Below, piece after piece: positions 8,985 to 30,681 of a stretch of DNA of 64,000 bases. The notes beneath the pieces were generated by a model. It saw nothing but the letters and a program-made list of their open reading frames with translations, searched no databases and was not told the origin of the DNA. Positions within the stretch are counted from its first letter, which is position 1. The number at the start of each line of letters is the position of its first letter. The position numbers and the translations under genes are program-made. This stretch comes from Terriglobia bacterium (lineage in GTDB: Bacteria; Acidobacteriota; Terriglobia; Bryobacterales; Bryobacteraceae): positions 220,101-284,100 of the forward strand of contig CAVPVO010000004.1 in assembly GCA_963709215.1 (NCBI GenBank). Direction: 5' to 3'.

Positions 8985-8997
8985 AATGGAGAGACCT

Positions 8998-9972: not shown

Positions 9973-10027
9973 CGCGCTGAAGTCCCGCCGGAAAATTGAT
10001 CCTTCCCACGCCCGCCGCATCAGGTCT

Positions 10028-10165
10028 TAGCAGGCTGCTGAAAAACGCTTCTTGCCACTCCCTTACCGTCGCGGTTCGGAAAAGCAGGTGCTGATTCCGC
10101 AGTGGTTACTGAACCGCGCGCGTCAGCAAGCGGCAACGAAAAGAGCTTTTTCAGCATCCCGTCAG
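10028..10165. repeat. palindromic MITE/REP-like element, copy 1 (3' end degenerate)
   Basis: About 97% identical over ~120 nt to 12845-12978: tagcaggctgctgaaaaacgcttcttgccactccctta.cgtcgcggttcgg...gaaccgcgcgcgtcagcaagcggcaacgaaaagagc. Confidence 0.85.
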
Positions 10166-10259
10166 GTGATCATCACGGACCATGCCGGCAACACCGCAAG
10201 AAATGCTTTCATCCGTCGGCAAGGATAACGCTAAGCGATAAAATTCACCCGGGGGGGCA

Positions 10260-14220: not shown

Positions 14221-15597
14221 ATGCACCGGTGCGATGACAATTGTTCTGTCGATTCCTCCGGCTGGGTCAAACCGGAGAGAGCATTCTCCGTGCACGGTCT
14301 CACCCTTACCCGGGCCACAGGTTTCACTGCGCGCGACGCATCTGATCCCGGATTTCCGGCCCTCCTGTGGCTCGGCTCTTTCTTCGCCTGCCTGCTGCTG
14401 CTGCCGCCGCTGCCTTTTCCGATCGGGAACTCGGGAGCTCACGTGGCGCCGTTTGTGGCTCTGCTCGGAGTGCCTGGCAGTGTGCGCGCGATACGAAGGC
14501 GACAGGCTGCGATGCCGACGTTGGCGTTGCTACTGCTCCTTTTCCTGGCTGTGCTGCTTGTCAGCGTGGGATTCGCGGCGGCTTACTCGGGATGGAAGAT
14601 TGCGCTCGGAAGCCTGGCGCGTGTTTTGCTGTTCGGCGTGGGAGTCTGCTTGTTCTTCCACGGCCTTGCCGGACCGCGCGGGGAAGAATGGGACGCGCTG
14701 CGGTTCGCGCGTGTGCTCTTCCTCATTGGGCTGGTCGGCGCGGCTTTTGCGTGCATCGATTTCTACTTCCAGTTCCACGTGCCGGCGGGATTCGCGATGC
14801 AGCTGGTGTGGCTGAAGTCCGGGATGATGCGCCGGGCGCAGGGGGTGTTTTATGAAGCCAGCACGCTGGGGAATTTCTGCGCGTTTTTCCTGGTGATGAT
14901 CCTGGTCGCGGCATTTCCTGTGCGACGCCGGATTTGCCCGCCCGCGCTGCTGGCTGCGGGGGCTTTGATTTTCGGAACCGCGCTGATTCTGTCGGGCTCA
15001 CGCGCGTCGGTCGTGGCGGTCATTGTGGCTGGCTGTGCATTTTCGGTGCTGCGCCGCGTCCGGACCGCCGGAGTTCTGGCGGCAATGGCGGCCTGCCTGG
15101 GCGCGGCAGCGGTAGTGCGTATCGCAGTGCCGGCATTTTGGGATAACTACTGGTTCCGGCTGGCGGGCTCGGCGACCGGTGTCTGGTCGTACCCCAACGA
15201 AGTCTTGTCGGGCCGGCTGGCGAACTGGAAAGTGCTCGTCGATTTTCTGATGCAGCATCCCTGGCATCTGTTGTTCGGGATCGGATACAAAACGATTCCT
15301 TATACGAACTACATCGGAGCGCACGTGGTGGCGGATAACACGTGGCTGGGTCTGCTGGTTGAGACCGGGGTTATTGGAGTCTTAGTGTTCGCGGCGCTGA
15401 ACGCTGCGATCCTGCGAACGTCGCTGCGTGCGGCGCGGAGTGACCAGGGCGAGGCGGCGTTTTTTGGCGCATGGATATTCTGCTTCTGGTGCGTGGAGAT
15501 GGTGCAGATGCTCACCGCGGATGTGATCACGTACTGGCGCGTGCTCCCGGTCTATTTCTGGGTGCTCGCGACCGCAGCACGCGAGTCGGGTCAGTGA
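14221..15597 (+). CDS. O-antigen ligase/polymerase family (Wzy_C) polytopic membrane protein
   Basis: More than 10 hydrophobic helices. LILSGSRASVVAVIV and a large loop, then ADNTWLGLLVETGVIGVLVFAAL. The true start may be downstream of 14221. Confidence 0.75.
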   Translation: MHRCDDNCSVDSSGWVKPERAFSVHGLTLTRATGFTARDASDPGFPALLWLGSFFACLLLLPPLPFPIGNSGAHVAPFVALLGVPGSVRAIRRRQAAMPTLALLLLLFLAVLLVSVGFAAAYSGWKIALGSLARVLLFGVGVCLFFHGLAGPRGEEWDALRFARVLFLIGLVGAAFACIDFYFQFHVPAGFAMQLVWLKSGMMRRAQGVFYEASTLGNFCAFFLVMILVAAFPVRRRICPPALLAAGALIFGTALILSGSRASVVAVIVAGCAFSVLRRVRTAGVLAAMAACLGAAAVVRIAVPAFWDNYWFRLAGSATGVWSYPNEVLSGRLANWKVLVDFLMQHPWHLLFGIGYKTIPYTNYIGAHVVADNTWLGLLVETGVIGVLVFAALNAAILRTSLRAARSDQGEAAFFGAWIFCFWCVEMVQMLTADVITYWRVLPVYFWVLATAARESGQ

Positions 15598-16739
15598 AGA
15601 TCCTGTTTCTCGATCAGTTCAGCGAGCCCGGCGGCGCGCAGCTCTGTCTGCGGGATGTGATGGCGGAATGCGTCGCGCTCGGATGGCAAACGATTCTGAT
15701 GGCGCCGGGCGAAGGGGCGCTGGTCAGATGGAGCCTCGGCATCGGGGTTCCGACGCATCCGCTGCCGCTGGGGAGTTATTCGAATGGCAGGAAGACGTTG
15801 CCGGATGGCGCGCGGTTCGCCGTGGATGTGGCGAGAATGTCGCTGGCAGTGAGGCGCGTCGTGGAGCGCGAAAGGCCGGATCTCGTCTACGCAAACGGAC
15901 CGAGGGTGCTGCCGTCCGTCACTGGTCTCGCGTGTCCGGTGGTGTTCCACGCGCACAGCTGTGTGCGCCGATGGCCCGAACGGCAGATCATACGCTCGAG
16001 TCTGCGATCTGCGAAGTCCACAGTAATCGCAGCATCGAGCTATGTGGCGGCGGACCATGAATCGGCGTACGTCATTTATAACGGCGTGGCGGACCTGTGG
16101 CGTGGCGCGCGAAGCTTCGGGCGGACTATTGCGCGTGTCGGTTTCATGGGGAGAATCGCCCGGGAGAAAGGGCTGATCGACTTTGTGCAGGCCGCGAGAC
16201 GACTTGCCGAAAGCCGGGCCGACGTCGAGTTCCTCGTTTACGGCGAGACGCTCTTCGGCGATCCGCGATACGAGCGGGAGGTGCGGGCAACCGCCGCGGG
16301 AGCTCCGGTCACGTTCTGCGGCTGGACGGACGATGTGGCGCGGGCGCTGCGCGATATCGAGATTCTGGCGGTGCCTTCGGGTCCGGATGAAGCGGCGACC
16401 AGGGTGATCATGGAGTCGTTTTCCGCGGGGACACCGGTGGTGGCCTATCCGGCGGGCGGCATCCCGGAACTGGTGGAACATGGGCGCACTGGATTGCTGA
16501 CAGAGACTCCTGACAGCGACGCACTGGCGCGAAGTATCGGAATTCTTCTGGAGGATCGGCGATTGATAGACCGATTGTCCGCTGCCGGACGGGAAGAATG
16601 GAAGCAGAGGTTCAGGGTTGAGCGTTTTCAGCGCACGGTTTGCGATCTGCTGAAGCAGTGTGCGCAAAGTGCCACAGCCAGGCGCCATGAAGCGTGGGCG
16701 CCAGCACGCGGACATGATGAAGCAGCCGCTTCGCGATAA
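15594..16739 (+). CDS. glycosyltransferase family 4
   Basis: GTG 15594 overlaps the previous stop (GTGA). VKILFLDQFSEPGGAQ.., FMGRIAREKGL.., EAATRVIMESFSAGTPVVAYPAGGIPELVEHGRTGLL. Confidence 0.85.
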   Translation: MKILFLDQFSEPGGAQLCLRDVMAECVALGWQTILMAPGEGALVRWSLGIGVPTHPLPLGSYSNGRKTLPDGARFAVDVARMSLAVRRVVERERPDLVYANGPRVLPSVTGLACPVVFHAHSCVRRWPERQIIRSSLRSAKSTVIAASSYVAADHESAYVIYNGVADLWRGARSFGRTIARVGFMGRIAREKGLIDFVQAARRLAESRADVEFLVYGETLFGDPRYEREVRATAAGAPVTFCGWTDDVARALRDIEILAVPSGPDEAATRVIMESFSAGTPVVAYPAGGIPELVEHGRTGLLTETPDSDALARSIGILLEDRRLIDRLSAAGREEWKQRFRVERFQRTVCDLLKQCAQSATARRHEAWAPARGHDEAAASR

Positions 16740-17913
16740 AAGAAAGCTCGAACAGCTTGCGGCGGGCGCGCAGTCCGATTCCAACCTTTGACGCCGGGAC
16801 GTGAGGGTGGAGGTGAACCCGCATGCGCCGCCGCGGGAAGAGACGGCGCATGGCGATTTCGCGTTTGTCTTTAGCGTTCGAAAGAAGGCAGAAGTGCAGC
16901 CAGATTTCGTTCTTTCCGGCGCCACCGGTCGCAGTCGAGGGCGACCAGGCGGGAGATGATCCGAAGATTGAGAACCAGCGGTTGACCGATGCCGGGAGTT
17001 GTTCGATCGCGGAGAACGCAGCAGGATGGAGATCGCAGTGGAACCAGTCGCGAGCGAGGCGGAAGGTGATGCCTTCCATCACGCGGGACGACGGAAGAGC
17101 GGTGGCACGCCATTCGGTCCAGAAACCGTCTTCTCGTGAGGATCGTTCCAGAAAGTGTGCGACTTCGTAAACGTGCCGAAGACGCATGTCGCCGTTCAGA
17201 AGGTGGCGGACAAGGTGCATCGCCGAGTAGGAGAGAGCATCCACAGGATGGAGCGTGTGAAAGCGCAGGCCGCCGATCTGACGCGCGGCGCGACGCTGCC
17301 AGAATTGACTGAAGTCTGCATCGCAGAAGCGCATCCTCGGCGGATTCCAGAAGCGGAAATGCAACTCGACGGAAAGCGGCATGGCGGGGTCGTAGTAGTC
17401 GTCGCGCCAGGTCCAGCCAGTGCGACGAATCATGACGGGGAGATGATCGGCGCCGGGATCGAGTACTTCGCCGGCGAAACCGTATCCGAGCGACTGAACT
17501 GCACGGGCGGCGTCGGGCATCGATTTCGCGGGAACGTAGATGTCGATGTCGTACTGCGGCCGGTCGGTTGGATCGTCGGTGTACCACGGCCGCTGCGCAA
17601 GGCCTTTCAACACGACGTGCTCGATGCCATGGAGACAAAGCGCGTCCGTGATCTGAGATTGTGCCGTGACGAGGCGCTCGTGACGGACGCGGTTATCGGC
17701 CAGATTGCGGTCGATGCGGCGCCGAACCGATTCGGGCAATTTGGGCAACGACGCGCGGCAGTGCGTCCCGAGTGCAAGAGTGAGATGCGCGCGGTCCATG
17801 GCGTGAAGCAGTGCCGGCCAGTCCTGGTCCGGAATCGATTCCAGTTCGGCCAGCGACCTGTCGTGAAATCGCAGCGCCGTCAGGACTGCAGAGAGGTGAG
17901 TGCGGTCAGCCAT
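16612..17913 (-). CDS. uncharacterised nucleotidyltransferase family protein (PF14907 / NTP_transf_5-like)
   Basis: IEHVVLKGLAQRPWY..PQYDIDIYVP (nucleotidyltransferase-type D.D motif), HLPVM..VELHFRFW, and a helical C-terminal half. The start overlaps the kinase stop by 8 nt. Confidence 0.65.
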   Translation of the reverse strand: MADRTHLSAVLTALRFHDRSLAELESIPDQDWPALLHAMDRAHLTLALGTHCRASLPKLPESVRRRIDRNLADNRVRHERLVTAQSQITDALCLHGIEHVVLKGLAQRPWYTDDPTDRPQYDIDIYVPAKSMPDAARAVQSLGYGFAGEVLDPGADHLPVMIRRTGWTWRDDYYDPAMPLSVELHFRFWNPPRMRFCDADFSQFWQRRAARQIGGLRFHTLHPVDALSYSAMHLVRHLLNGDMRLRHVYEVAHFLERSSREDGFWTEWRATALPSSRVMEGITFRLARDWFHCDLHPAAFSAIEQLPASVNRWFSIFGSSPAWSPSTATGGAGKNEIWLHFCLLSNAKDKREIAMRRLFPRRRMRVHLHPHVPASKVGIGLRARRKLFELSFIAKRLLHHVRVLAPTLHGAWLWHFAHTASADRKPCAENAQP

Positions 17914-18877
17914 TGGAATTCACGAAATCCCGAAGGACATGCTCCGCGCTGTCGAAATCGTGGTAGGTTAATTCGCCGATCGGTAGCTGCAGGAATTCCT
18001 TCAGGGCGCGGTTCTGGTCCCGGCGGATTGTTTGGTCGCCGTAGATGGCGGGATTGCGGAGGCGACGCGCCGCCTGTGTCCGGTCCACCGGTGCGATTCG
18101 CGCATCGACCTGTTCAGGCCGGCGATTCAGAAAAACAATATGGCTGGCGTGACCGGCGAGCGCAACCGGTATGTCGAGCGTATCGGTTTCGACCTCGATA
18201 TCCAGCTTGCCGTTGGGCCGCAGTTCCGGCTTGAACCGGTCCAGTTCGGGGAAGAGCCGGCGTGCTGAATCACGGAAACGAATGCGAAACGGGCGGCCGA
18301 CAACTTTGCGATCGTCACGACCGCGGACGATGTGCGTGGCGTCGTCAGAGAGATAGGTCCAGCCGCGGCGGGCGCACGCATAAGCGAGAGACGTCTTCCC
18401 GGCGCCGGATTCGCCGCAGAGGAGCACGGCGCGTCCGTTGAACGCGGCGCAGGAGGCGTGCAGCGGACTGAGATGACGCGCATCGATCATCGAATAGCCG
18501 GCGGGCTCGAGAAAGTGATATCGAACGTAGCTCTGGTTGCGTGCGACGTCGCGCGTGAGGCAGACAAAGGTGAAGAAACCGGCGAGATCACACATTCCGA
18601 AGTTGTCCGGACCGTGGACGATAGAGATGAGATGGTTGCGGCCACGGGGCATGCGGGCGACAGGAGGCATTGATGCGTCGCGATCCTCCACGACGATTCG
18701 CACGGTCACGGGGCGTTCCGCATCAGCCGGAGATGGAAACTTCTGCCAAAGCCAGTCAGCGGCCGCGATGATGTCCTGCGAATTCGTCTCGAGGTCGAGT
18801 GGAAAACCCATGGGGTAGTAGCGCGACCGCAGGGACAGCGGGAGATCGTAACCCAGAGGATCCTCCTTCGGTTTCAT
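17906..18877 (-). CDS. HPr kinase/phosphorylase-related P-loop kinase
   Basis: Internal start MKPKEDPLGY (ATG 18877-18875) forms an ATGA overlap with the sigma factor stop. Walker A block AVLLCGESGAGKTSLAYACARRGWTYLSDDATHIV is typical of the HprK C-terminal domain. The upstream half of ORF 17906..19417 is an out-of-frame overlap with the sigma gene. Confidence 0.7.
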   Translation of the reverse strand: MKPKEDPLGYDLPLSLRSRYYPMGFPLDLETNSQDIIAAADWLWQKFPSPADAERPVTVRIVVEDRDASMPPVARMPRGRNHLISIVHGPDNFGMCDLAGFFTFVCLTRDVARNQSYVRYHFLEPAGYSMIDARHLSPLHASCAAFNGRAVLLCGESGAGKTSLAYACARRGWTYLSDDATHIVRGRDDRKVVGRPFRIRFRDSARRLFPELDRFKPELRPNGKLDIEVETDTLDIPVALAGHASHIVFLNRRPEQVDARIAPVDRTQAARRLRNPAIYGDQTIRRDQNRALKEFLQLPIGELTYHDFDSAEHVLRDFVNSNG

Positions 18878-19500
18878 GCGGCCGAGCGGCGCTGGATGGC
18901 GCGGTTGAGCTTGCGGCGCGCGTTGACGACATACGCTTTGGCGCCGCTGGGGTTCGTCAGCGCGAGATCGCGGGTGATGGTGGCAAGCGGGACTTCGTAG
19001 CCATAGTGGAGCGCCATGACGCGCGCTTCGGTGGCGTCGAGAGTATTTCCGATCACGCGCCACATTTCCTCGTGGCGCTGGCGGCGCTCGAGGGCGATGT
19101 CGGCCGGAAGGGAGGACGAGTCGCGGAGACGCAGGGGCACCGTTTCGCCGATGTCGACGGGATCGGCAATGCGGGAAACCGAACTCAGGCAATGATTGCG
19201 CGTGATGGCGTAGAGCCAGGTGGAGAATCGCGAATCTCCGCGGAAACCGCTGCGGTGACGATATGCGCGAAAGAAAACCTCCTGGGCGAGATCGAGGGCC
19301 CGGCAGCGGTTGCGCGTGAAACGCAGGCACCAGGAGGTCACGCGCGCGTGATAGCGCCGGAAAAGCTCGTTGAACATCAGCTCGCCGAGATCTGCGTTTG
19401 GATCGCAAAGTACACACATGACTTCTTCATCCGTGAGAGCTTCCGGACAGTCCTGCGCCATACGAAAAAGCTGCGGACGAAGGGCCGCTTGGGTTGACAT
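18874..19500 (-). CDS. ECF-type RNA polymerase sigma-70 family factor
   Basis: Region 2: LFRRYHARVTSWCLRFTRNRCRALDLAQEVFFRAYRHRSGFRGDSRFSTWLYAITRNHC. Region 4: EARVMALHYGYEVPLATITRDLAL..AKAYVVNARRKL. Confidence 0.85.
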   Translation of the reverse strand: MSTQAALRPQLFRMAQDCPEALTDEEVMCVLCDPNADLGELMFNELFRRYHARVTSWCLRFTRNRCRALDLAQEVFFRAYRHRSGFRGDSRFSTWLYAITRNHCLSSVSRIADPVDIGETVPLRLRDSSSLPADIALERRQRHEEMWRVIGNTLDATEARVMALHYGYEVPLATITRDLALTNPSGAKAYVVNARRKLNRAIQRRSAA

Positions 19501-19507: not shown

Positions 19508-20668
19508 TCATAGGGGCCGGACGCTGCGGGTGTCGTGATGGGTTTGTAAACACGTTGTAAATTCAGTCTCGGCGGGGCCGGCGACCACCGGGCGTCCGGC
19601 GAGTTTGTTCAGCGCGACGGCGAAATTCCGGGTGAAAGCTGCTTCGGAGAAGTCGCTGACGCCGGTTCGGAGATAGAGCGGGTTGAACCAGGATTCCGTG
19701 CGGTCAAATGTGCGAAGCGCTCCCGCGAGGCTGGCCTCGGTGGCTTCGTCGTAGAGCACGCCACAGCGTTCACGAACGATTTCAAGCGACCCGCCCCGGG
19801 CCAGCGCGAGGACCGGTTTACCGCTGGCGAGCGACTCGACTGTAGTGATGCCGAAGTCCTCTTCGCCGGGCACGATAACCGCCGCGGAGCGGGCGTAGAG
19901 GCCGCGAAGTTCCGCGTCGGAAACGCGGCCGCAGAATTCGATGTTGGGTGCGGCGAGGCGTCTGAGATTGGCGTATTCGGGACCGTCACCGACGATTTTC
20001 AGGCGGCGTCCCTGCCGCGCGAAGGTGCGGACGGCGTAGTCGAGCTGCTTGTACGCGACGAGTTCCGCGACTATCAGGAAGTAGCCTTCCGAGGGTTCGT
20101 GATAGAAGGAATCGACGGCGACCGGAGGATGGATGACCTCAGCCCGGCGGCGGTAAGTGCGCCAGATACGGCGGCGAACATTCCAGCTGTTGGCGACGAA
20201 GCGGTCGACGCGCGCGGCCGAGGCGTAGTCCCAGGTGCGCAGGTAGGTCGAAAGAGAAGCCAGCGCTGCGCGCTTTATCGCGTTGCGGGAGAAGTCGTGC
20301 AGGTAGGCCGGATAAAGCTCCCACAGATAACGCATCGGCGTGTGGCAATAGCAGAGATGGCGGCATGCTGAGGGAACGAGAACACCTTTCGCAGGGCCCG
20401 ATTCACTGCTGATGACGAGATCGTAAGAGCGGAGGTCGAACGATTCCAGCGCGAGCGGCATCACAGGCAGAAGGCCGCGATGAAATCGTTTCAGCGGATT
20501 CAGGAATGAGGCTGTGACTTTGCGCGAGCGGATCAGAGGGGACACGCGGGCGGGATCGTAAAAGAGGGTGAAGATGTCGGCTTCGGGAAGCATCCGCAGG
20601 ATTGCCTCCAGGACTTTTTCGCCGCCACGTGAGCCCAGCAGCCAGTAGTGGATTACCGCAATCCGCAT
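19508..20668 (-). CDS. glycosyltransferase family 4
   Basis: MRIAVIHYWLLGSRGGEKVLEAIL.., LKIVGDGPE.., VPGEEDFGITTVESLASGKPVLALARGGSLEIV. Confidence 0.85.
   Translation of the reverse strand: MRIAVIHYWLLGSRGGEKVLEAILRMLPEADIFTLFYDPARVSPLIRSRKVTASFLNPLKRFHRGLLPVMPLALESFDLRSYDLVISSESGPAKGVLVPSACRHLCYCHTPMRYLWELYPAYLHDFSRNAIKRAALASLSTYLRTWDYASAARVDRFVANSWNVRRRIWRTYRRRAEVIHPPVAVDSFYHEPSEGYFLIVAELVAYKQLDYAVRTFARQGRRLKIVGDGPEYANLRRLAAPNIEFCGRVSDAELRGLYARSAAVIVPGEEDFGITTVESLASGKPVLALARGGSLEIVRERCGVLYDEATEASLAGALRTFDRTESWFNPLYLRTGVSDFSEAAFTRNFAVALNKLAGRPVVAGPAETEFTTCLQTHHDTRSVRPL
19544..19564 (+). promoter_or_regulatory. TTGTAAA-N4-TTGTAAATTC direct-repeat motif, 44-64 nt upstream of the ECF sigma start (inside the 3' end of the GT4 gene)
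   Basis: TTTGTAAACACGTTGTAAATTCA matches 36478-36500 (GTTGTAAAAGTGTTGTAAATTCG) at 18 of 21 core positions with identical 11-bp phasing. Confidence 0.4.
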
Positions 20669-20715: not shown

Positions 20716-21438
20716 TTACCAGGCGTCGCGACCGCTGAAAATGTCGCGAATAGAGCAGAGCAAAATGTGGAGGCGAAGGGCCGACGAACCACGGCGAACG
20801 AGGAACTGGTCGAGCCGTTTCCTGCGGGCGTAGCTCAGCCGGCTTCGACCGCGAACCTGCCAGAGCCCTGTCAGTCCGGGGCGCACCGAGAGGACTTCTT
20901 TGGTGGCGGCCCCGTAGAATTCGTCGAGTTCCGAAGCCGTGATTGGCCGCGGACCGATGAACGACATCTCGCCGCGAACCACGTGGATGAGTTGTGGAAG
21001 CTCGTCGAGCGAATGACGGCGGCAGAAGCGCGCAAATCGGCTGGTGATGCGAGGATCATGCGGTGTTTTGACCGGTTGTGCTTCGACGTCGGCGCCCCAC
21101 ATGGTGCGGAATTTGAGCATGAGCAAGGGCCGGCCGAGCCATCCGACTCGGGCGTGGCGAATCAAAGGAGGGCGGCGGGAGACCAGCAGGATGGTGACCG
21201 CGATGGCGAGGATCAGCGGTGACGCCAACACAAGCAGGACGGCGGCGATTGACCTTTCGCAGGTTAGGGTCACAGTACGGGCGCGAGCTGACAGATTGGA
21301 CGCCAACCCCGGCCGGGCGGGAACAAAATTGTTCCGGGGCTTTACCATGTGCTGTCCAAATGGCTGAGCGACACGGATGTCGAAGTCCCAAAGAAAAGTT
21401 GTTTTCTTCTTCCCGGCGTTTTCCAGTACAGAAGCCAC
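20716..21438 (-). CDS. polyprenyl-phosphate sugar phosphotransferase (bacterial sugar transferase family, short one-TM form)
   Basis: AAVLLVLASPLILAIAVTILLVSRRPPLIRHARVG..LKFRTM..DELPQLIHVVRGEMSFIGPRP..RPGLTGLWQV. An alternative start is Met31 at 21348. Confidence 0.85.
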   Translation of the reverse strand: MASVLENAGKKKTTFLWDFDIRVAQPFGQHMVKPRNNFVPARPGLASNLSARARTVTLTCERSIAAVLLVLASPLILAIAVTILLVSRRPPLIRHARVGWLGRPLLMLKFRTMWGADVEAQPVKTPHDPRITSRFARFCRRHSLDELPQLIHVVRGEMSFIGPRPITASELDEFYGAATKEVLSVRPGLTGLWQVRGRSRLSYARRKRLDQFLVRRGSSALRLHILLCSIRDIFSGRDAW

Positions 21439-22885
21439 GGCGCCACTGGGAATTCTGGCGGTTTCAACGCCGCTGCTGAGGGCCGGGTATCAGGTGCGAA
21501 TCATCGATTCGACCATTACGCCGAACTTCCAGAAACGAACGCTGGAGGAACTGGACGATGCGCTGTGTCTGGCGATTTCGCTGGTCACGGGACCGATGAT
21601 TCACGAGACGGTACAGATCGCGCGCGCGGCGAAGAGGCGCTATCCGGATAAGCCGGTGATTCTCGGCGGCTGGCATCCGTCTCTGCTGCCGGATCAGACG
21701 TTGGCGGCCGAGTGCGTAGACGTCGTGGTTAAGGGACAGGGCGAGGAAGCGCTGCTCGAAATCGTGGAGCGCATCGCGGCTGGAGAGTCGATGAAGGGCA
21801 TCGCAGGCGTCGGCTACAAGGAAGACGGCAGGATCGTGTTCAACATGCCGCGCGCGTTGAAGCCGATTCGCGAGTTGCCCCCTAAGGCTTATCATCTGGC
21901 CGATTTCGACGAGTACGAGCGCGTTTGCGGGCGGCGCTGGGCGATGTACACGTCGAGTCTGGCCTGTCCGTATAACTGCGCGTACTGCACGAATGACGGA
22001 GTCTACGGGCGCAAGTGGAATGCGCTCGAGCCGGCGCAAGTGGTCGAGGAGACCAGCGATCTGGTGGAGCGGTACGGCCTGTCGCTGCTGTGGATCGTCG
22101 ACGACAATTTCCTGGTCGATAAGGAGCGGGCGCTGGGGATCGCCGAGGGACTGGTGCGGCGCGGTGTGAAGTTCGACTGGAGCGTGCAGTCGTCGACGAA
22201 TCTGGTGTCGCGTTTTTCGGTGGATGAGCTCAAGCTGCTGCGGCGCGCGGGGCTGTCGCAGGTGTCGCAGGGAGCGGACAGCGGTTCGCCCAAAGTGATG
22301 CACCTGATGAACAAGGATTTTCAGAAGATCGAAACGATCTACACGGCGGCGGACAAGCTGTCGCGGGCGGGAATTCGTCCGTCGTTCAACATGATCTTCG
22401 GCTTTCCGGGCGAAGGCGAGAGCGAGCGGAAGGAATCCATCGCACTCATCATGGATGTCTGCCGGCGGTTTCCGGGCGCGGAGTTCTGGACGAATATCTT
22501 CACGCCGTACCCGGGTTCACCGATCATGCAGCGTGCGTTTGAGCTCGGGATTCACGTGCCGAAGACCCTCGAAGGCTGGACCGATTTCTTCCCGCGCTAC
22601 ACAACGCTGCCATGGCTGAAGGGTCGCAAGCACCGCGAGGTGCAGACTATGCGCGAATATCTGCGCATCGCGTTTCATCGCGTGCCCATCGGGATGCAAA
22701 AGAAGAACAGGCTGCAGAGGATTATGCACGGGATGATCGGCGTGCCGGCGCGATGGCGGCTGGATCACGGATTCTACTGGCTGCCGTTTGAACTGTGGCT
22801 CAAAGAAATGATGAACCGGCTGATGCAGCCGCCCAAACCGAAAGTGGACGCACATCAACTGGAAGCGGAAGCTGTGACGTGTTGA
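21377..22885 (+). CDS. B12-binding-domain radical SAM protein 1 (paralog of 26389..27855)
   Basis: N-terminal Rossmann-like KVVFFFPAF..PLGILAVSTPLLRAGYQVRIID..VVVKGQGEEALLEIV. Radical SAM cluster motif CPYNCAYC. C-terminal ..LPWLKGRK. Confidence 0.85.
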   Translation: MSKSQRKVVFFFPAFSSTEATAPLGILAVSTPLLRAGYQVRIIDSTITPNFQKRTLEELDDALCLAISLVTGPMIHETVQIARAAKRRYPDKPVILGGWHPSLLPDQTLAAECVDVVVKGQGEEALLEIVERIAAGESMKGIAGVGYKEDGRIVFNMPRALKPIRELPPKAYHLADFDEYERVCGRRWAMYTSSLACPYNCAYCTNDGVYGRKWNALEPAQVVEETSDLVERYGLSLLWIVDDNFLVDKERALGIAEGLVRRGVKFDWSVQSSTNLVSRFSVDELKLLRRAGLSQVSQGADSGSPKVMHLMNKDFQKIETIYTAADKLSRAGIRPSFNMIFGFPGEGESERKESIALIMDVCRRFPGAEFWTNIFTPYPGSPIMQRAFELGIHVPKTLEGWTDFFPRYTTLPWLKGRKHREVQTMREYLRIAFHRVPIGMQKKNRLQRIMHGMIGVPARWRLDHGFYWLPFELWLKEMMNRLMQPPKPKVDAHQLEAEAVTC

Positions 22886-24246
22886 GACCGGAAGTACTCC
22901 TGACGCACAGCAACAATCTGTTTTCGGACCGAAAGCAGATGGAGAAGATGCAGCCATATCCGCCGCTGCAGACGATACTCGCGGCGGCGGTGCTGCGGGA
23001 AAGCGGGATCGGCGCGGCCTTGTTCGATCCGACGCTGGAAGCGCCCGGGCCTGCGCTGCTGGAGGCGTTCGAGGCGAGTCTCGAGGCGCATAACCCGCGC
23101 CTGGTCGTGGTTTGCGAAGACAGCTTCAACTTCCTCTCCAAAATGTGCCTGGTGCGGAACCGGGAATTGGCGTTCGAGATGGCCACGATCGCGCAGAGGC
23201 GCGGGATTCCGATCGCCGCACATGGACCAGATGCGACGGACCGCGCGGGTGAGTATCTGCGGGCCGGATTCTTTGCGGTGCTGATCGGCGAAGTGGAATC
23301 GACACTGCAGGAGCTGGCGCGGCGCGAGTGCGTCGACGAATTTCGCGGCTTGTTGGCCAAAACGGCGCGCGCGGGAAACGCCGAGCTGGATGCGCTTCCG
23401 CTGCCTGCCTGGGATCTCGTGGATGTGGAGCGCTACCGGCGCGCGTGGATTGAGGCGCACGGGTATTTTTCGCTCAACATGGCAACCAGCCGGGGATGTC
23501 CCTACCGATGCAACTGGTGCGCGAAGCCGGTGTTCGGGCAGCAATATCATTGCCGCTCGCCGCGGGCGGTGGCCGCAGAGATGCTGCATTTGAAAACTGC
23601 ATACGCGCCGGACCAGATCTGGTTTGCGGACGATATCTTCGCGCTTTCTCCGAAGTGGACAGGCGAATTTGCGGAGGCTGTCGCTGAGCTGCGGGGCGAG
23701 ATTCCTTTCCGAATGCAGTCGCGATGCGATCTGATGACCCGGCCGACCGTGGCTGCACTGAAACGCGCCGGTTGCGCGGAAGTGTGGATGGGCTGCGAAT
23801 CGGGCTCGCAGAAAATTCTCGACGCCATGGACAAGGGTATTCGCGTGGAACAGATCTACGCCGCGCGGGAGAATCTGCGGCGTCACGGAATTCGCGCGTG
23901 CTTTTTCCTGCAGTTCGGTTATCCGGGCGAAGGATGGAGCGAGATCCAGGCGACCCTGCGGATGGTGCGGGAGACGAAACCGGACGATATCGGGATTTCG
24001 GTTTCATATCCGCTGCCGGGTACGGTATTTCACCGCAACGTTTTTCGCGGCATCGGACCACGCGCTAACTGGTCGGACAGTGCCGACCTGGCGATGATTT
24101 TTGCGGGGCCTTATCCGAGCGAGTTTTACCGGGCGCTGGCCGATGCGCTGCATCTCGAGGTGCGTGAAGGCAGGTACTCAGAGGCCGCCTGGGAGCGCGT
24201 GTACAGGCTGGAACGCAGTGCGAGCCGGGCCGAGGCGGTCGCGTGA
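22879..24246 (+). CDS. B12-binding-domain radical SAM protein 2 (paralog of 24243..25592)
   Basis: GTG 22879 overlaps the previous stop. LLTHSNNLFSDRKQMEKMQPYPPLQTILAAAVLRESG. SRGCPYRCNWCAKP. FFLQFGYPGEG. Confidence 0.85.
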   Translation: MLRPEVLLTHSNNLFSDRKQMEKMQPYPPLQTILAAAVLRESGIGAALFDPTLEAPGPALLEAFEASLEAHNPRLVVVCEDSFNFLSKMCLVRNRELAFEMATIAQRRGIPIAAHGPDATDRAGEYLRAGFFAVLIGEVESTLQELARRECVDEFRGLLAKTARAGNAELDALPLPAWDLVDVERYRRAWIEAHGYFSLNMATSRGCPYRCNWCAKPVFGQQYHCRSPRAVAAEMLHLKTAYAPDQIWFADDIFALSPKWTGEFAEAVAELRGEIPFRMQSRCDLMTRPTVAALKRAGCAEVWMGCESGSQKILDAMDKGIRVEQIYAARENLRRHGIRACFFLQFGYPGEGWSEIQATLRMVRETKPDDIGISVSYPLPGTVFHRNVFRGIGPRANWSDSADLAMIFAGPYPSEFYRALADALHLEVREGRYSEAAWERVYRLERSASRAEAVA

Positions 24247-25592
24247 TGAAGCTGCTGCTCACACACGCCTACTTCCTGTATGAAGACGCCAAAGAGATGG
24301 CGATCATGAAGCCCTATGCACCACTGGGGATTCTCTACCTCTCGTCGTACCTGCGCGCTAAGGGATTCGATGTCGAAATCTACGATTCCACGTTCGGCTC
24401 GCGTGAGGAGTTGCTCGGGATCCTGAATGACGGACCTCCGGCGGTGCTGGGCATCTACGCGAATCTGATGACGCGCGCGAACGCGGTGGCGATTATCGGC
24501 GCGGCACGGTGCGCGGGATGGCGCGTCATCGTGGGCGGGCCGGAGCCGTCGAATTACGCCGCAGAGTATCTCGATGCGGGCGCGGACGTTGTGGTGCGCG
24601 GCGAAGGGGAGACGGCGGTTGAGCAATTGATGGCGAGCGGATTCGACCGATGTGCCTGGCCGCGCATCGACGGGATCGTTTTTCGCGGTGACAGCGGACG
24701 GACCATTGAAACGGGCGCGGCGCGGCATCTGCCGGACCTCGATCGACAGCCGTGGCCGGACCGCGACCGGATCGATATTCCGCGCTACATGCAGGTGTGG
24801 CGGGACAATCACGGAAGGTCGTCGATCTCGCTGATTACAGCGCGAGGGTGCCCGTACAAATGCAACTGGTGCAGCCATTCTGTTTACGGCCACACGCACC
24901 GGAGGCGATCGGCGAAGGCGGTGGCGGAGGAGGTCGAATGGCTGCTGCGGCGCTACGCACCGGACATGTTGTGGGTTGCCGACGATGTGTTTACGATCCA
25001 TCACGGCTGGCTGTTCGAATACGCGGCGGAGTTGAAGCGGCGCGACATTCGCATTCCTTTCGAATGCATCACGCGCGCCGATCGAGTCAATGAGGGTGTG
25101 GCGGCAACGCTGCGCGACCTCGGATGCATGCGGGTGTGGATCGGATCAGAGAGCGGATCGCAGCGTGTCCTCGACGCGATGCAGCGCGGTGTAACTGTCG
25201 AGCAGGTGCAGCGCGCGGTCGGGCTCGCGAAAGCGAACGGAATCGAAACCGGCATGTTTCTGATGTGGGGCTACGACGGTGAAGAGGTCTCCGACATTGA
25301 AGCCACGGTCGAGCACGTAAGGAAGTGCCGGCCGGATATTTTTCTGACGACGGTGTCATATCCGATCAAGGGGACGCCGTACTTCGAAAAGGTTGCGTCG
25401 CGCCTGGTGAATATCGGCCCGTGGGCAGATACCACCGACCGCGGGTTTCAGATTCGGGGACGGCATTCGCGGCGGTTTTACAAATTCGCGGATGAGTTAC
25501 TGCGAAGCGAGATGGCCGCGGTGCCCGACGCCGCAGCCGCACTCGCGGCGCGAAATGGCCTGCGTGAGGCGTTCGCGGAGACGGAGGCGTGA
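24243..25592 (+). CDS. B12-binding-domain radical SAM protein 3
   Basis: ATGA overlap with the previous gene. LLLTHAYFLYEDAKEMAIMKPYAPLGILYLSSYLRAKG. VVVRGEGETAVEQL. ARGCPYKCNWCSHS. Confidence 0.85.
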   Translation: MMKLLLTHAYFLYEDAKEMAIMKPYAPLGILYLSSYLRAKGFDVEIYDSTFGSREELLGILNDGPPAVLGIYANLMTRANAVAIIGAARCAGWRVIVGGPEPSNYAAEYLDAGADVVVRGEGETAVEQLMASGFDRCAWPRIDGIVFRGDSGRTIETGAARHLPDLDRQPWPDRDRIDIPRYMQVWRDNHGRSSISLITARGCPYKCNWCSHSVYGHTHRRRSAKAVAEEVEWLLRRYAPDMLWVADDVFTIHHGWLFEYAAELKRRDIRIPFECITRADRVNEGVAATLRDLGCMRVWIGSESGSQRVLDAMQRGVTVEQVQRAVGLAKANGIETGMFLMWGYDGEEVSDIEATVEHVRKCRPDIFLTTVSYPIKGTPYFEKVASRLVNIGPWADTTDRGFQIRGRHSRRFYKFADELLRSEMAAVPDAAAALAARNGLREAFAETEA

Positions 25593-26392
25593 TCGATGTG
25601 AATCGCGAAATGCGACTGCAGTTCCTGCGCGACTACGCGAAGATCCGTCAGGCGGAAGGACGCGGTTCGGACGACCCGGCCTGGTATTGCGCACTTCCTT
25701 ATCGCGATCTGACCGGCAGGAACTCCGCGCAGTGGAAGATTCGCGCGCGGACATGGAAGCATTTCGAACACTCCGTGCTTCGCGGGATGGAGTTGGGAAC
25801 GACGCGGTCGCTCGAAATACTGGATATCGGCGCGGGAAACGGATGGATGTCTTACAGGCTGGCGCTGCGGGAGCATCAGCCGGTTGCAGTCGACATCTTC
25901 GCGGATGGCAGCGACGGATTACGCTGTGCGCGGCATTATCCGCGGCGATTTCCGTGCGTCGAAGCCGAGTTCGACCGGCTGCCGTTTCGCGACGCTACAT
26001 TCGACCTGGCGATCTTCAATTCGTCCATTCACTATTCGACCGATTACCGGCGCACGCTGACGGAAGCACGGCGATGCCTGCGACGTTCGGGCCGCATTGT
26101 GATCATGGATTCGCCGATTTACAGACGCGCCGCGCACGGAGAACAGATGCGAGCCGAACGGCACGAGCTGTTCGAGAGAGCGTATGGGTTTCGGTCGGAT
26201 GCCGTGCCGAGCATCGAATACTTCGACGAGGCAACGCTCGAGTCACTGGCCAGAGAGCTGAAGATCGAGTGGCAACTCAGCCAACCGTGGTACGGCATCT
26301 GGTGGGCACTCCGTCCATGGAAGGCCCGATTGCGCGGGCGGCGTCCGCCATCACGATTCTGCATTCTGGTCGGGAGTTTCGGCGCACCGTGA
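25589..26392 (+). CDS. class I SAM-dependent methyltransferase
   Basis: GTGA overlap with the previous gene. Motif I ILDIGAGNGWMSYRLA, then FDLAIFNSSIHY and LRRSGRIVIMDSPIY. Confidence 0.8.
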   Translation: MIDVNREMRLQFLRDYAKIRQAEGRGSDDPAWYCALPYRDLTGRNSAQWKIRARTWKHFEHSVLRGMELGTTRSLEILDIGAGNGWMSYRLALREHQPVAVDIFADGSDGLRCARHYPRRFPCVEAEFDRLPFRDATFDLAIFNSSIHYSTDYRRTLTEARRCLRRSGRIVIMDSPIYRRAAHGEQMRAERHELFERAYGFRSDAVPSIEYFDEATLESLARELKIEWQLSQPWYGIWWALRPWKARLRGRRPPSRFCILVGSFGAP

Positions 26393-27855
26393 TTATTCTG
26401 CTGCATCCGCGCGCTACGCGGCCGAAGAACCGGCGGTTTCCGCTGGCAATTCTCTCGATCGCCGCTGTGCTTGAGGGCAAGGAAGACTACGTCATTGTGG
26501 ACGGCAATCTCGATCCGCAGCCGATGCAAACGATCACGCGGATTATGGCTGCCAGCGAAGTCGAAATGCTGGCGGTTTCCGTCATGCCTGGGCCGCAGAT
26601 GGTGGCGGCGATTGAGCTGTCGAAGGAATTCCGGCGCCGGTGGAAGTCAGTTCCGATTGTGTGGGGCGGCTACTTCCCTTCGCTCTACACCGATGCCACG
26701 CTGAATGCCGAGTACGTCGATTTTGCGGTGAAGGGGCAGGGCGAGGAGACGTTTCCGGAATTGGTCTCTGCGCTGCGCGGGGATCGGAAATTCGCCGGTG
26801 TGCGGGGACTGTCGTTCAAAGATGCGTTCGGGCTGCACGTGCACAATGCGCTGCGTCCGCTGCGTTCGCCGGGCGATTTTCCGGAGCTGCCTTATCACAA
26901 ACTGCAGTCGGTGGAGAAGTATCTGCTGCCGACGTTTCTGGGTAAGCGGACGGCGGTGCATCACGCGAGCATAGGGTGTCCGTTCCGGTGCCAGTTCTGC
27001 GGCGTCGTGCCGATTTACGACGGGCGGCAGAAGACGGAACCGGCAGAGCGTACGGCGCGGGTGCTGGGGAGGCTGCAGCGCGAATACGGCATCGATGCGG
27101 TGCAGTTTTACGACAACAATTTTTTCCTGAGCGAGAGCCACGCCGTGGATCAGGCCGAGCGTCTGATGCCGCTGAAACTGCGCTGGTGGGCGGAAGGGCG
27201 CATCGACGCGATGCTGCGGTATTCGGATGAAACGATGCGCGCGATTCGCGATGCCGGTGCCACCATGATTTTCTTCGGCGCGGAGTCGGGCTCGGACGCG
27301 ACGCTCGCCGAAATGAACAAGAAGATCACGACGGAACAGACGCTCGAGCTGGCAGCACGCATTTCGAAGTTCGACATCATTCCGGAGTTTTCGTTCGTCA
27401 TCGGAAATCCAGGCGATCCGGGACGCGATACGAACGAGACGATCCGGTTCATCCGGAAGATCAAGCGGCTCAATCCGGCGGCTGAGATCATCGTGCAGCA
27501 CTACATTCCGACGCCGCATCCGGACGGCATGTACGGCAGCGTGGACGAAGCGATCCGGTTTCCGGATACACCGGACGAATGGGCCAGTGAACGCTGGTTC
27601 AACTTCACGATTCGGCAGGACCCGCGCCTGCCGTGGCTGCCGCGTCGTGTGAAGCGGCGTATCGATCACTTCGAGCTGGTAATCAATTCGCGCTGGCCGA
27701 CGGTGCAGGACATCCATCTGCCGCGATGGAGCCGCGTGCTGCTGCAGTCGCTGAGCAGCTGGCGGTACGCGCTTGGAATTTACGCCGCGCCGTTCGAACT
27801 GGAGTGGGCACAGAAACTGGTGGCTTTGCGAAAGCCGCGATGGGAGAGCCTCTGA
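26389..27855 (+). CDS. B12-binding-domain radical SAM protein 4
   Basis: GTG 26389 (GTGA overlap) is in frame with the long ORF 25492..27855, whose upstream part overlaps two other genes. IILLHPRA..PLAILSIAAVLEG..AVKGQGEETFPELV. SIGCPFRCQFCGV. ..RLPWLPRR. Confidence 0.8.
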   Translation: MIILLHPRATRPKNRRFPLAILSIAAVLEGKEDYVIVDGNLDPQPMQTITRIMAASEVEMLAVSVMPGPQMVAAIELSKEFRRRWKSVPIVWGGYFPSLYTDATLNAEYVDFAVKGQGEETFPELVSALRGDRKFAGVRGLSFKDAFGLHVHNALRPLRSPGDFPELPYHKLQSVEKYLLPTFLGKRTAVHHASIGCPFRCQFCGVVPIYDGRQKTEPAERTARVLGRLQREYGIDAVQFYDNNFFLSESHAVDQAERLMPLKLRWWAEGRIDAMLRYSDETMRAIRDAGATMIFFGAESGSDATLAEMNKKITTEQTLELAARISKFDIIPEFSFVIGNPGDPGRDTNETIRFIRKIKRLNPAAEIIVQHYIPTPHPDGMYGSVDEAIRFPDTPDEWASERWFNFTIRQDPRLPWLPRRVKRRIDHFELVINSRWPTVQDIHLPRWSRVLLQSLSSWRYALGIYAAPFELEWAQKLVALRKPRWESL

Positions 27856-28520
27856 CTGCTGCGGGCGAGGGATTCCGTCTATGGGCGACAAGCTACGATG
27901 CCACACCGAACGCGCTTCTTGCGCTCGAAATGCGCATTCTGTCTGAGCGGATCAGTCTGGCGCCGGGAACGAGTTTCCTCGACGCCGGAAGCGGTACGGG
28001 GCGATGGATGACGTGGGCGCAGTCGCGAGGCGCAAGGGTTTTTGGCATTGACTCGTGCCGCGAGATGCTCGTTCAGGCGGAACACAAACCAGGACTGCGG
28101 GGACGGTCAGTGCTCGCCGACATCAGTGCCATTCCCATGGCTGACGGCGCAGTCGATTTCGCGATGTGCTCTCTCACGATCGGATACGTGGCGTCGCCCG
28201 CGATTGTATTTCGGGAAATGGCACGCGTGTCGAGACGCGTCATCGTGAGCGATCTGCATCCCGACGCGGTCCGGGCCGGCTGGACGCGGTCGTTTCGCAG
28301 CGGCGATCGGCGCATTGAGCTTCAACATTTCGACCATTCGATCGCCAGCCTTGACAGGCACGCGCAGGCAGCGGGGCTGGAACGCGAATGGCGCACCGAA
28401 GTTTCGTTCGGCGAACCGGAACGCGAAATATTTGCTCGCGCCGGTAAGGAAAAAGCCTTCGAAGAGAGCCGCGGGATACACGTGGTGTCGATCACCTCAT
28501 GGCGGAAATCGTCCGACTGA
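27840..28520 (+). CDS. class I SAM-dependent methyltransferase
   Basis: MGEPL.. starts 16 nt before the previous stop. Motif I FLDAGSGTGRWMTWA, then GIDSCREML and VDFAMCSLTIGY. Confidence 0.8.
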   Translation: MGEPLTAAGEGFRLWATSYDATPNALLALEMRILSERISLAPGTSFLDAGSGTGRWMTWAQSRGARVFGIDSCREMLVQAEHKPGLRGRSVLADISAIPMADGAVDFAMCSLTIGYVASPAIVFREMARVSRRVIVSDLHPDAVRAGWTRSFRSGDRRIELQHFDHSIASLDRHAQAAGLEREWRTEVSFGEPEREIFARAGKEKAFEESRGIHVVSITSWRKSSD

Positions 28521-29680
28521 CCGGGGCGCGCGTCGCGCGGGATGCGAATCGCGGCGAACGTATCGATCTCACGATCGAAGACAGCCGCATTTTGCCGTTC
28601 GATTCCCGCATCAGTCCGCACGTCGAGCTCGATCTCACCGGATGCCTGCTGCTTCCAGGTCTTATCAACGCGCACGACCACCTGGAGTTTAACCTTTTCC
28701 CCCGGCTCGGTAATGGACCTTATGCAAACGCGTCGGAATGGGCGAGGGATATTTATCATCCGGACGCGTCGCCGATTCGGGAGCATCTGCTGGTGCCGAA
28801 ACCGATACGGCTGATCTGGGGCGGGATCAAGAACCTGCTCAGCGGCGTGACGACGGTCGCGCACCACAATCCTTATGCGCGGCGCGTTTTCACGGAGCGC
28901 TTTCCTGTGAAGGTACTCAGGCGTTATGGGTGGGCGCATTCGCTCGATTTCAGCCCCGATATCTGCGATTTGTGGGAGCGCACGCCGGAACACTGGCCGT
29001 TTTTCATCCACGCGGCCGAGGGAACGGATGAGCACGCGCGCGTGGAAATTTCCCGACTCGCGGAGATGGGCATGCTCTCGCCGCGCACACTCCTGGTGCA
29101 TGCGGTGGCGATGGGCGCGCCGGAAGTGGAAACGGTTTCCCGGAATGGATGCGGCATCGTGTGGTGCCCAACGTCGAATCTGTTCTCGCTCGGGCGGACC
29201 TTGTGTCCGGACGTTCTTCGGTCGGACATCCCGGTAGCGCTGGGCACTGATTCCGGACTGACGGCGCAGGGCGACATGATCGACGAAATCCAGGGCGCGA
29301 TGGCAACCTCCGGGTTAAACGCGGAAGAGATTTACCCGATGGTCACGACGCAGCCCGCCGGACTGCTGCGGTTGGGCGGGGGCCAGGGACGAATCTGCGA
29401 AGGCGGTGCGGCCGATCTGGTGGCGGTGGCGGATACCGGGCAGACACCTGCGCAAGCCGTGGCCAATCTGAAGCCGGAACTGGTGATGGCGCGCGGGCGC
29501 GTCATGCTGTTGTCAGCCCGTTTTGCCCGCATGCAAACCGGCTGGAAGAGTTTTCACGCGATCCACGTGGAAGGACGCGGAAGCTTTATGATCCGGGCGG
29601 ACGTCCCGAGGTTTTTCGGCGCCGCGTCGACGGCTCTCGGCTCGGAAATAAGACTGGCCGGGAGGCGCGTGTGCATCTGA
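28499..29680 (+). CDS. amidohydrolase superfamily protein (metal-dependent hydrolase/deaminase fold)
   Basis: LLLPGLINAHDHLEF (HxH motif), ..FFIHAAEG.., LLVHAV.., VALGTDSG... Overlaps the previous gene by 22 nt. Confidence 0.75.
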   Translation: MAEIVRLTGARVARDANRGERIDLTIEDSRILPFDSRISPHVELDLTGCLLLPGLINAHDHLEFNLFPRLGNGPYANASEWARDIYHPDASPIREHLLVPKPIRLIWGGIKNLLSGVTTVAHHNPYARRVFTERFPVKVLRRYGWAHSLDFSPDICDLWERTPEHWPFFIHAAEGTDEHARVEISRLAEMGMLSPRTLLVHAVAMGAPEVETVSRNGCGIVWCPTSNLFSLGRTLCPDVLRSDIPVALGTDSGLTAQGDMIDEIQGAMATSGLNAEEIYPMVTTQPAGLLRLGGGQGRICEGGAADLVAVADTGQTPAQAVANLKPELVMARGRVMLLSARFARMQTGWKSFHAIHVEGRGSFMIRADVPRFFGAASTALGSEIRLAGRRVCI

Positions 29681-30661: not shown

Positions 30662-30681
30662 CAGTGACCGCGCGGTCACTG
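30662..30681. terminator. perfect 20-nt palindromic hairpin between convergent genes
   Basis: CAGTGACC-GCGC-GGTCACTG. It lies 8 nt after the plus-strand stop (30652-30654) and overlaps the minus-strand stop (30676-30678). There is no U-tract. Confidence 0.55.

Follow-up and report, generated by a model that had tools for sequence, protein, structure and literature searches.

The 64,000-nucleotide stretch of a Terriglobia bacterium genome analysed here (the window; contig CAVPVO010000004.1, G+C about 62%) carries a glycan-assembly locus in which the gene of a sigma factor of the extracytoplasmic function (ECF) type overlaps that of a P-loop kinase-like protein, which in turn overlaps that of a PF14907 nucleotidyltransferase (NTase). 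Our analysis suggests that the sigma factor is an autoregulated, cluster-situated orphan ECF which drives the locus, with the kinase and the NTase as tailoring enzymes, an explanation that we regard as probable though well short of certain. An earlier sequence-only reading of the same DNA had offered two possibilities, a control module made of kinase and NTase, or a pair of modification enzymes with the sigma as pathway-specific regulator. It is the second that fits, as a locus-specific promoter motif stands before four units, including that of the sigma itself, and the enzyme pair is kept in lineages without the sigma.

On the minus strand the genes follow each other in the order priming transferase (PGT), GT4a, ECF sigma, kinase and NTase:

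20716..21273, minus strand: priming polyprenyl-phosphate sugar-phosphate transferase (PGT; Bac_transf), 147 bits for PF02397 and 178 bits for TIGR03025, the latter under the cut-off of 295.55
19508..20668, minus strand: GT4 glycosyltransferase GT4a, from matches to PF13692 and PF00534
18874..19500, minus strand: ECF sigma factor of 208 amino acids without an anti-sigma partner, from domain profiles and neighbours
18877..18882, minus strand: codons of the C-terminal Ala-Ala of the sigma factor (putative ClpXP degron), the last base being the A of the kinase ATG
17906..18877, minus strand: P-loop kinase-like protein of 323 amino acids with a predicted HprK/PEPCK fold (ScmC-type; PEPCK, phosphoenolpyruvate carboxykinase), Walker A GESGAGKT at 155-162 and D178-D179
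16612..17913, minus strand: PF14907 nucleotidyltransferase of 433 amino acids with the polymerase-beta (pol-beta)-type signature LKG104 ... Q120-Y-D122-I-D124

The sigma open reading frame (ORF) ends with CGC TCG GCC GCA TGA on the minus strand, and the ATGA at 18874-18877 combines its stop with the start of the kinase (ATG at a18877-t18876-g18875). Kinase stop and NTase start lie within ATGGCTGA and overlap by 8 nt (17906-17913), and a gap of 7 nt separates the GT4a stop at 19508 from the sigma ATG at 19500. All three junctions had been described before and were read directly from the sequence. The PGT most likely starts at the GTG at 21273, giving 185 amino acids, rather than at the ORF start at 21438, because of the position of its promoter and the lengths of its orthologues (177–212 amino acids).

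The sigma factor matches PF04542 with 60.8 bits and TIGR02937 with 61.8 bits (cut-off 42.9; residues 43-200). It has sigma-2 and sigma-4 domains, no sigma-3 domain and about 200 amino acids, as ECF (group 4) members of the sigma-70 family do, and its closest sequence matches in the PDB are the ECF sigma factors SigH, RpoE and SigW. Its C-terminus reads RSAA. An Ala-Ala ending is present in 114 of 120 orthologues and in none of the 63 unrelated ECFs recovered by the same scan. The tails which follow the RRKL motif in these orthologues vary in length between 7 and 48 residues; 109 different 12-residue tails were counted, and the consensus is S-[RK]-[T/S]-A-A. Exceptions are found in two of the related loci used for comparison (numbered here with the prefix L or P), where the divergent sigma of L007 ends in AEKV and that of a related branch (L109) in CAAS. 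The idea that the terminal alanine is dictated by the overlapping start codon of the kinase was rejected, because the overlap fixes the last base only and Ala-Ala is kept both without an overlap (L005, L027) and without a kinase gene (L029, L030, L032, P0244).

No anti-sigma gene, a usual but not indispensable neighbour of an ECF gene, lies beside the window sigma, whose neighbours, GT4a and the kinase, are both enzymes. The nearest sister sigmas (42–49% identity) have the motif NPSGAKAY in common with it and lack the Ala-Ala ending. Their genes are followed by an overlapping one for a protein of about 240 amino acids with an N-terminal HxxxCxxC, one hydrophobic segment and a C-terminal domain, which, judged from its sequence, has the architecture of a zinc-binding single-pass anti-sigma factor. 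A Pfam scan of these putative anti-sigma proteins gave no match, and the assignment is based on the HxxxCxxC, the single hydrophobic segment, the overlapping position directly after the sigma gene (+1) and a hidden Markov model (HMM) made in this analysis. Built from four copies, this HMM matches the +1 gene in 8 sister loci and finds no match in any frame of the window, nor in the loci with Ala-Ala-type sigmas, which bears out the earlier claim that no anti-sigma gene is adjacent. As sisters with the putative anti-sigma gene have no Ala-Ala and Ala-Ala-type loci have no match to it, tail and anti-sigma gene are mutually exclusive in this comparison, and the di-alanine tail appears to replace the anti-sigma factor.

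A precedent exists in sigma-AntA, an orphan, cluster-situated ECF that ClpXP degrades via a C-terminal di-alanine, which is a proven degron (PMC7142297). In a description of 2020, direct proteolysis of an orphan ECF through such a tail was so far unique to sigma-AntA of Streptomyces, and ECF282, the group of sigma-AntA, has been reported as 100% Actinobacteria (PMC7826278). The window sigma resembles sigma-AntA in having no anti-sigma factor, in lying inside the biosynthetic locus it is predicted to serve and in its conserved di-alanine, the likeness being drawn from these features. It differs in the phylum of its host (Acidobacteriota against Actinobacteria) and in the predicted product, a glycan against a polyketide/peptide starter unit. 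Since the nearest sisters of the window sigma carry anti-sigma factors of the zinc-binding (ZAS) type, the tail probably originated independently of sigma-AntA. The C-terminal Ala-Ala thus probably marks the sigma for ClpXP-type degradation, the reading of the tail by ClpXP being assumed by analogy; its level would then reflect the balance of synthesis and turnover, as has been shown for sigma-AntA. This would amount to an apparent independent invention of the sigma-AntA-type solution in Acidobacteriota, of which the evolutionary step is visible, the sisters keeping a putative zinc-finger anti-sigma without the tail and this clade the tail without an anti-sigma.

A candidate promoter motif was derived by fixed-spacing comparison upstream of the PGT, since aligning the divergent intergenic regions directly gave too much noise. 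TGTTCC-N17-CGTCCAA stands there in the window and in L027 and L028, with a variant of it in L002. For counting, the relaxed bipartite pattern TGTTCY-N17-nGTCYHA was used, which the window matches exactly at 3 places, where dinucleotide shuffles lead one to expect 0.02; the third of these lies in the 47-nt gap between PGT and GT4a and was absent from the set used to derive the pattern. Together with one mismatched site, the promoter-like sites in the window are:

21330..21359, plus strand: site before the operon of radical S-adenosylmethionine (radical-SAM) genes, TGTTCC-N17-TGTCCAA, its -35 box being half of the palindrome GGAACAAAATTGTTCC
21296..21325, minus strand: site before the PGT, TGTTCC-N17-CGTCCAA, with the same spacing in L002, L027, L028 and L108
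20676..20705, minus strand: site in the PGT/GT4a gap, its -10 box ending 7 nt before the GT4a ATG
14242..14271, plus strand: site with one mismatch before the genes Wzy1 and GT4b, with orthologous sites before the Wzz-Wzy-GT4b operon in L002, L007, L027 and L108

The relaxed pattern occurs 13 times in 118 kb of sigma-bearing loci, once in 339 kb of loci with the kinase only and not at all in 497 kb around unrelated ECF genes. L108 contributes 3 further matches, which brings the counts to 16 in 130 kb of sigma loci against 1 in 836 kb of other loci; the sites before GT4a and Wzz and those in L004-L007 and L108 are independent of the refinement of the pattern. Each site is directed at a gene start, and across the loci they precede PGT, GT4a, the radical-SAM gene rSAM1 and the Wzz-Wzy-GT4b operon. 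As the motif co-occurs with the sigma, we infer that this sigma reads it.

Between the divergent PGT and rSAM1 genes, two -35 boxes stand back to back and form the perfect 16-bp palindrome mentioned above (21320-21335); such a back-to-back pair of divergent sites is also present in L002, L028 and L108. An interpretation of the palindrome as classical GGAAC -35 boxes was dropped, as no -10 element lies at ECF spacing, and the conserved unit is TGTTCC-N17-GTCC on each strand. The distance of 7 nt from the -10 box to the GT4a ATG is the same in four loci (window, L002, L004, L028), and because the -10 ends exactly there, the GT4a-sigma-kinase-NTase transcript is probably leaderless. Scans of the 14-22 kb region for sigma-70-type promoters and terminators stayed at chance level. 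In L027, a second divergent motif pair (16607-16732) lies between Wzz and cytochrome P450 genes, with multihaem cytochromes after the P450, and the predicted regulon there therefore extends beyond glycan genes.

The order PGT-GT4-sigma-kinase-NTase is kept in the genome loci L002-L005 and L007 and in the metagenome loci L027, L028, L108 and the P0229 contig, that is, in every related sigma-bearing locus examined. In those loci Wzy and GT4b converge on the conserved block, and the order persists down to about 50% sigma identity. Sigma and kinase genes are joined by GTGA or ATGA in L002, L003, L004 and L028, and in L007 they overlap by one base (TGATG). The sequence-only reading had treated sigma, kinase and NTase as a triad; this stands insofar as the order is conserved in one large clade, but the parts are separable. 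In detail, 20 genome loci with kinase homologues (29–46% identity) have no sigma beside the kinase. Among these, L006, L009, L020 and L024 retain the NTase with GT4a, GT4b, Wzy and PGT, and L013 and L014 have it with a Wza-like exporter, a GT28-type transferase and amidohydrolase, methyltransferase and B12 radical-SAM genes. Conversely, an Ala-Ala-type sigma is found beside a HemY-like oxidase and a PMT_2 glycosyltransferase without kinase or NTase, and in L109 the sigma and kinase genes are separated by that of a MurJ flippase. The association itself is real and conserved, but to call the three genes a "triad" credits them with more functional unity than they have. In the related loci of Bryobacteraceae type the kinase is linked most tightly to GT4a, and the kinase-NTase pair is constantly partnered by PGT, GT4, Wzy, Wzz, MurJ and Wza genes, the more distant kinase homologues in L021, L025 and L026 having heterogeneous neighbours.

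Some further observations concern the loci without the sigma. In L013 a GTP cyclohydrolase II gene (16035-16775) adjoins the set of B12 radical-SAM, methyltransferase and amidohydrolase genes. In the Acidobacteriaceae-type loci L006, L010-L012, L016-L018 and L023 (around position 10000), the kinase is in an operon with a large protein of CarboxypepD_reg and outer membrane protein (OMP) beta-barrel domains (TonB-dependent type). These operons often hold a major facilitator superfamily (MFS) transporter, and MFS or MurJ occurs in the sigma-less set; the arrangement hints that the kinase acts there on a transported envelope or carbohydrate substrate.

The kinase is assigned at the level of fold and domain only, because it misses the cut-offs of several curated profiles (PF07475, 27.1 bits against 33.3; TIGR00679, 24.2 against 240; TIGR04352, 27.6 against 200; TIGR04355, 22.5 against 200; TIGR04249 or ScmC, 24.7 against 125). 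Of the families that the sequence-only reading had brought up, TIGR04352 and TIGR04355 thus fall away and PF14907 (NTP_transf_5) stands, as the NTase reaches 126.9 bits (cut-off 31.2) over 248 of 249 profile positions. PF27840 (ScmC) is given for the kinase in the precomputed annotation; the local Pfam scan is without that match, so that its score is not visible. Homologues of the kinase fall into more than 1000 clusters, and the precomputed PF27840 is present on 120 of 120 among the matches listed. The predicted structure of the kinase (pLDDT 94, pTM 0.90) matches ATP-dependent PEPCK over its whole length (TM 0.50–0.56, normalised to the query), and its C-terminal half matches HprK/P (Foldseek: 1kkl, 1jb1, 2qmh; E about 4e-6 to 1e-5), in line with the weak similarity to HprK/P at the sequence level. 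With its P-loop, the catalytic aspartates D178-D179 and a predicted PEPCK-like C-terminal fold it has the features of an HprK-type kinase, and the catalytic residues of the protein first noticed as kinase-like are intact. Across 28 kinase sequences, down to 29% identity, conservation extends to a His ahead of the P-loop strand, the GxxGAGKT sequence, D179 and an FPEL motif. HprK/P itself (PF07475) shares the Walker A motif GxSGxGKT, the following DD, this His and the fold of the C-terminal domain, whereas the scores under the cut-off, a different N-terminal domain and the lack of an HPr or phosphotransferase system (PTS) context set the window kinase apart. In the NTase, G104, R118, Q120, D122 and D124 are conserved (17 sequences), with G104, D122 and D124 in at least 90%.

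That HprK-like kinases and NTases are paired in the clusters of phosphorylated lasso peptides had been stated correctly in the sequence-only reading (PMC8498205, PMC6993621). In the pseudomycoidin precursor, PsmK phosphorylates the serine at the C-terminus, and PsmN is required for the addition of one or two hexoses to that phosphate, the double mutants PsmK D158/D159 and PsmN D134/D136 each being inactive (PMC6993621). Like PsmK/PsmN (and PadeK), the window pair consists of an HprK-fold P-loop kinase and a pol-beta-type NTase, with the DD and DxD aspartates conserved; PsmN is likened here at the level of an uncharacterised pol-beta-type NTase. Unlike PsmK, the window kinase has an extra N-terminal domain, to which its whole-length similarity to PEPCK is due, and unlike the psm loci, this one has no precursor peptide, PqqD/B1, B2, C or ATP-binding cassette (ABC) exporter, its constant partners being glycan-assembly genes. 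By analogy, the pair is most plausibly a so far uncharacterised tailoring module in the glycan loci of Acidobacteriota, with a chemistry related to that of PsmK/PsmN.

Putting these lines together, the locus would make a Wzy-dependent, heavily modified cell-envelope glycan and have its own regulator. The sigma would recognise TGTTCY-N17-nGTCYHA before the PGT, the leaderless GT4a-sigma-kinase-NTase unit, the radical-SAM operon and the Wzy/GT4b operon, and would feed back positively on its own synthesis, because its gene sits in one of the motif-driven units. Kinase and NTase would be products of this regulon and not controllers of the sigma. The kinase might phosphorylate a hydroxyl of an intermediate of the pathway or of an acceptor that bears glycan, and the NTase might then add a sugar or a nucleotidyl group to that phosphate, as the PsmK/PsmN pair does on phospho-serine of the lasso peptide pseudomycoidin. 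A Ser/Thr-rich surface protein of the TIG/Soli_cterm type encoded in the window is a candidate non-glycan acceptor. With a predicted regulon of four promoters, of which one is leaderless, the idea lends itself to direct testing. In addition, a pair of HprK-fold kinase and PF14907 NTase that is known only from lasso peptides is here widespread in acidobacterial glycan loci, which points to phosphodiester-linked decoration of a cell-envelope polymer in abundant, poorly studied soil bacteria.

Several points weigh against this explanation. The kinase occupies the overlapping +1 slot held by the anti-sigma gene in the sister loci, where, because of that placement in the sisters, a regulatory partner would be expected, and the only characterised precedent for the pair acts on a peptide and not on a glycan (PMC6993621). 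The link between sigma and motif is drawn from their co-occurrence, some of the sites counted later had served to refine the degenerate pattern, and the -35 box TGTTCC is without the AAC usual for ECF promoters. Furthermore, no motif match was found in L109, whose sigma ends in CAAS, L007 with its AEKV ending has a single motif site, and L006 has a match before GT4a though no sigma lies within 10 kb.

The alternative that fares best, though we consider it unlikely, is that the kinase, with or without the NTase, regulates the sigma by phosphorylation or nucleotidylylation and in this way functionally replaces the lost anti-sigma factor. Besides the shared +1 position, the conserved ATGA/GTGA coupling of sigma and kinase is in its favour. 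Position -3 of the tail is Ser or Thr in 62% of the orthologues, and HprK homologues of lasso-peptide clusters phosphorylate a C-terminal Ser with few other sequence requirements (PMC8498205); however, in 29% of the tails this position is Ala or Pro. ECF groups which are controlled by kinases and have no anti-sigma factor are also known (PMC7826278, PMC8999054). In one of them, ECF43 (EcfP/PknT, EcfK/PknS), the kinases are Hanks-type Ser/Thr kinases and the sigmas, which lack the acidic motif of region 2.2, stay inactive until they are phosphorylated (PMC8999054). The window sigma is like these in having no anti-sigma factor and an adjoining kinase gene, but that kinase has a predicted HprK/PEPCK fold, and the known sigma kinases are of the Hanks type. 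Of the region 2.2 motif DAED, which in the ECF43 type is lost with Ser/Thr in its place, the window sigma (R-A-L-D) keeps only the last Asp, but the same xAxD pattern is common to the sister sigmas that carry an anti-sigma gene, which may speak against an inactive state like that of EcfP. Finally, about 20 loci without the sigma have kept the pair together with glycan genes, the Ala-Ala-type sigma exists without the pair, and MurJ separates sigma and kinase in L109. The control module of the sequence-only reading has found no positive support, and the conserved Ala-Ala, as a putative degron, offers a simpler explanation for the missing anti-sigma factor.

A narrower form of the same idea, which we hold to be still less likely, is that the kinase phosphorylates the Ser or Thr before the Ala-Ala and thereby hides the degron from ClpXP, which would stabilise the sigma, with the NTase perhaps capping or extending the phosphate. 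If true, a kinase-gated degron on an ECF sigma would set the output of the glycan locus, with a chemistry borrowed from the C-terminal-serine kinases of lasso peptides. To our knowledge such a mode of control has not been described for any sigma factor.

It is equally improbable that the pair, together with the radical-SAM/SPASM cassette, modifies a ribosomal peptide of the RiPP (ribosomally synthesised and post-translationally modified peptide) or SynChlorMet type, with the glycan genes merely adjacent. The kinase does have the precomputed PF27840 (ScmC) match and weak ones to TIGR04249 and TIGR04352, and in L013 and L014 it stays with radical-SAM, methyltransferase and amidohydrolase genes; an SPASM radical-SAM gene and four B12 radical-SAM genes lie in the divergent operon behind the same type of promoter. 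The scores for TIGR04249 and TIGR04352 are, however, far under the equivalog cut-offs of these NCBIfam models (24.7 against 125 and 27.6 against 200), and the constant partners of the pair are the PGT, GT4, Wzy, Wzz, MurJ and Wza genes. Neither PqqD or a RiPP recognition element (RRE), nor lasso B or C enzymes, nor a peptidase-transporter pair, nor a precursor-like ORF was found in a scan that covered about 27 proteins of the window and about 36 neighbours from related loci, in agreement with the earlier statement that PqqD, lasso B/C enzymes and a precursor are absent (window proteins from 8986 to 36394). Likewise, SynChlorMet ScmC (TIGR04249/PF27840) compares with the kinase in the domain-level match from precomputed Pfam and in the radical-SAM/SPASM gene nearby, but the window has no PqqD homologue and no ScmE/ScmF equivalog pair.

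Least credible is a chance landing of the sigma in a biosynthetic operon, with overlaps of no functional meaning and unrelated target genes elsewhere: start and stop codons often overlap in compact operons and the Ala-Ala-type sigma is also found in an unrelated setting, but the gene order persists to about 50% sigma identity over many contigs and the motif goes with the sigma and clusters within the locus.

The preferred reading, an orphan ECF that drives a glycan locus, has a further parallel in ECF248, which has no anti-sigma factor and adjoins glycosyltransferases, with Indibacter alkaliphilus as the named example (PMC8999054). The window sigma is likewise an orphan among glycosyltransferases, a likeness drawn from the published description, and the review reports neither a di-alanine tail nor a kinase/NTase pair for ECF248 (PMC8999054). 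The main text of the ECF classification paper has no mention of an HprK-like or PF14907 context. Literature searches on ECF with HPr kinase and on SynChlorMet found nothing relevant, and for PF14907 there was a single mention, in one phosphonate cluster.

The remaining genes around the sigma operon lie on the opposite strand:

14290..15597, plus strand: Wzy_C family polymerase or ligase (Wzy1), its ORF opening at 14221 and its likely start being the GTG at 14290
15594..16739, plus strand: second GT4 glycosyltransferase, GT4b, from domain profiles
21377..30654, plus strand: divergent cassette of four B12-binding radical-SAM enzymes, two class I methyltransferases, a TRZ/ATZ-type amidohydrolase and a radical-SAM/SPASM protein

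With a Bac_transf, two GT4 and two Wzy_C genes, the window has the components of Wzx/Wzy-type glycan assembly; Wzz is present in L002, L007, L027 and L108 and a MurJ-type flippase in L006 and L109. Wzy1 and GT4b converge on the sigma, kinase and NTase genes from the opposite side. GT4b most likely starts at the GTG at 15594, which overlaps the Wzy stop as GTGA, and it is convergent with the NTase gene, the 3' ends overlapping by 128 nt (16612-16739). A comparable 3' overlap of GT4b and NTase was also called in L001, L108 and L109. The Wzz gene that precedes Wzy1 in L002, L007, L027 and L108 is missing from the window. Since the promoter and first codons (..FSVHG..) that stand before Wzz in L002 (15861-15891) are joined directly to Wzy1 in the window (14221-14300), this suggests that Wzz was deleted in the window lineage.

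In the divergent cassette, the four paralogous B12-binding radical-SAM genes form a tandem (21377-27855), with a class I methyltransferase gene (25589-26392) between the third and the fourth; multiple C-methylations are one possible outcome. The amidohydrolase (28499-29680) is a member of the TRZ/ATZ deaminase group that weakly matches 5'-deoxyadenosine deaminase, and it may clear by-products of the five radical-SAM enzymes; it accompanies rSAM2 and a methyltransferase again in L013 and L014.

Two adjacent DUF3738 (Solibacter TIGR03435-type) paralogues (8986-11078) are typical of Bryobacteraceae/Solibacter genomes. The region 30676-33466 encodes a Ser/Thr/Pro-rich IPT/TIG protein (30676-31758) with a Solibacter C-terminal domain (TIGR03437, 169 bits), adjoining the second Wzy_C-family protein. 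Homologues of both (with weak TIG matches of 27–30 bits) occur near the kinase-NTase cluster in two distant Terriglobia genomes, in L020 (18176-20942) and L024 (18453-20826), and the TIG/Wzy_C pair could represent a protein O-glycosylation or surface-layer system.

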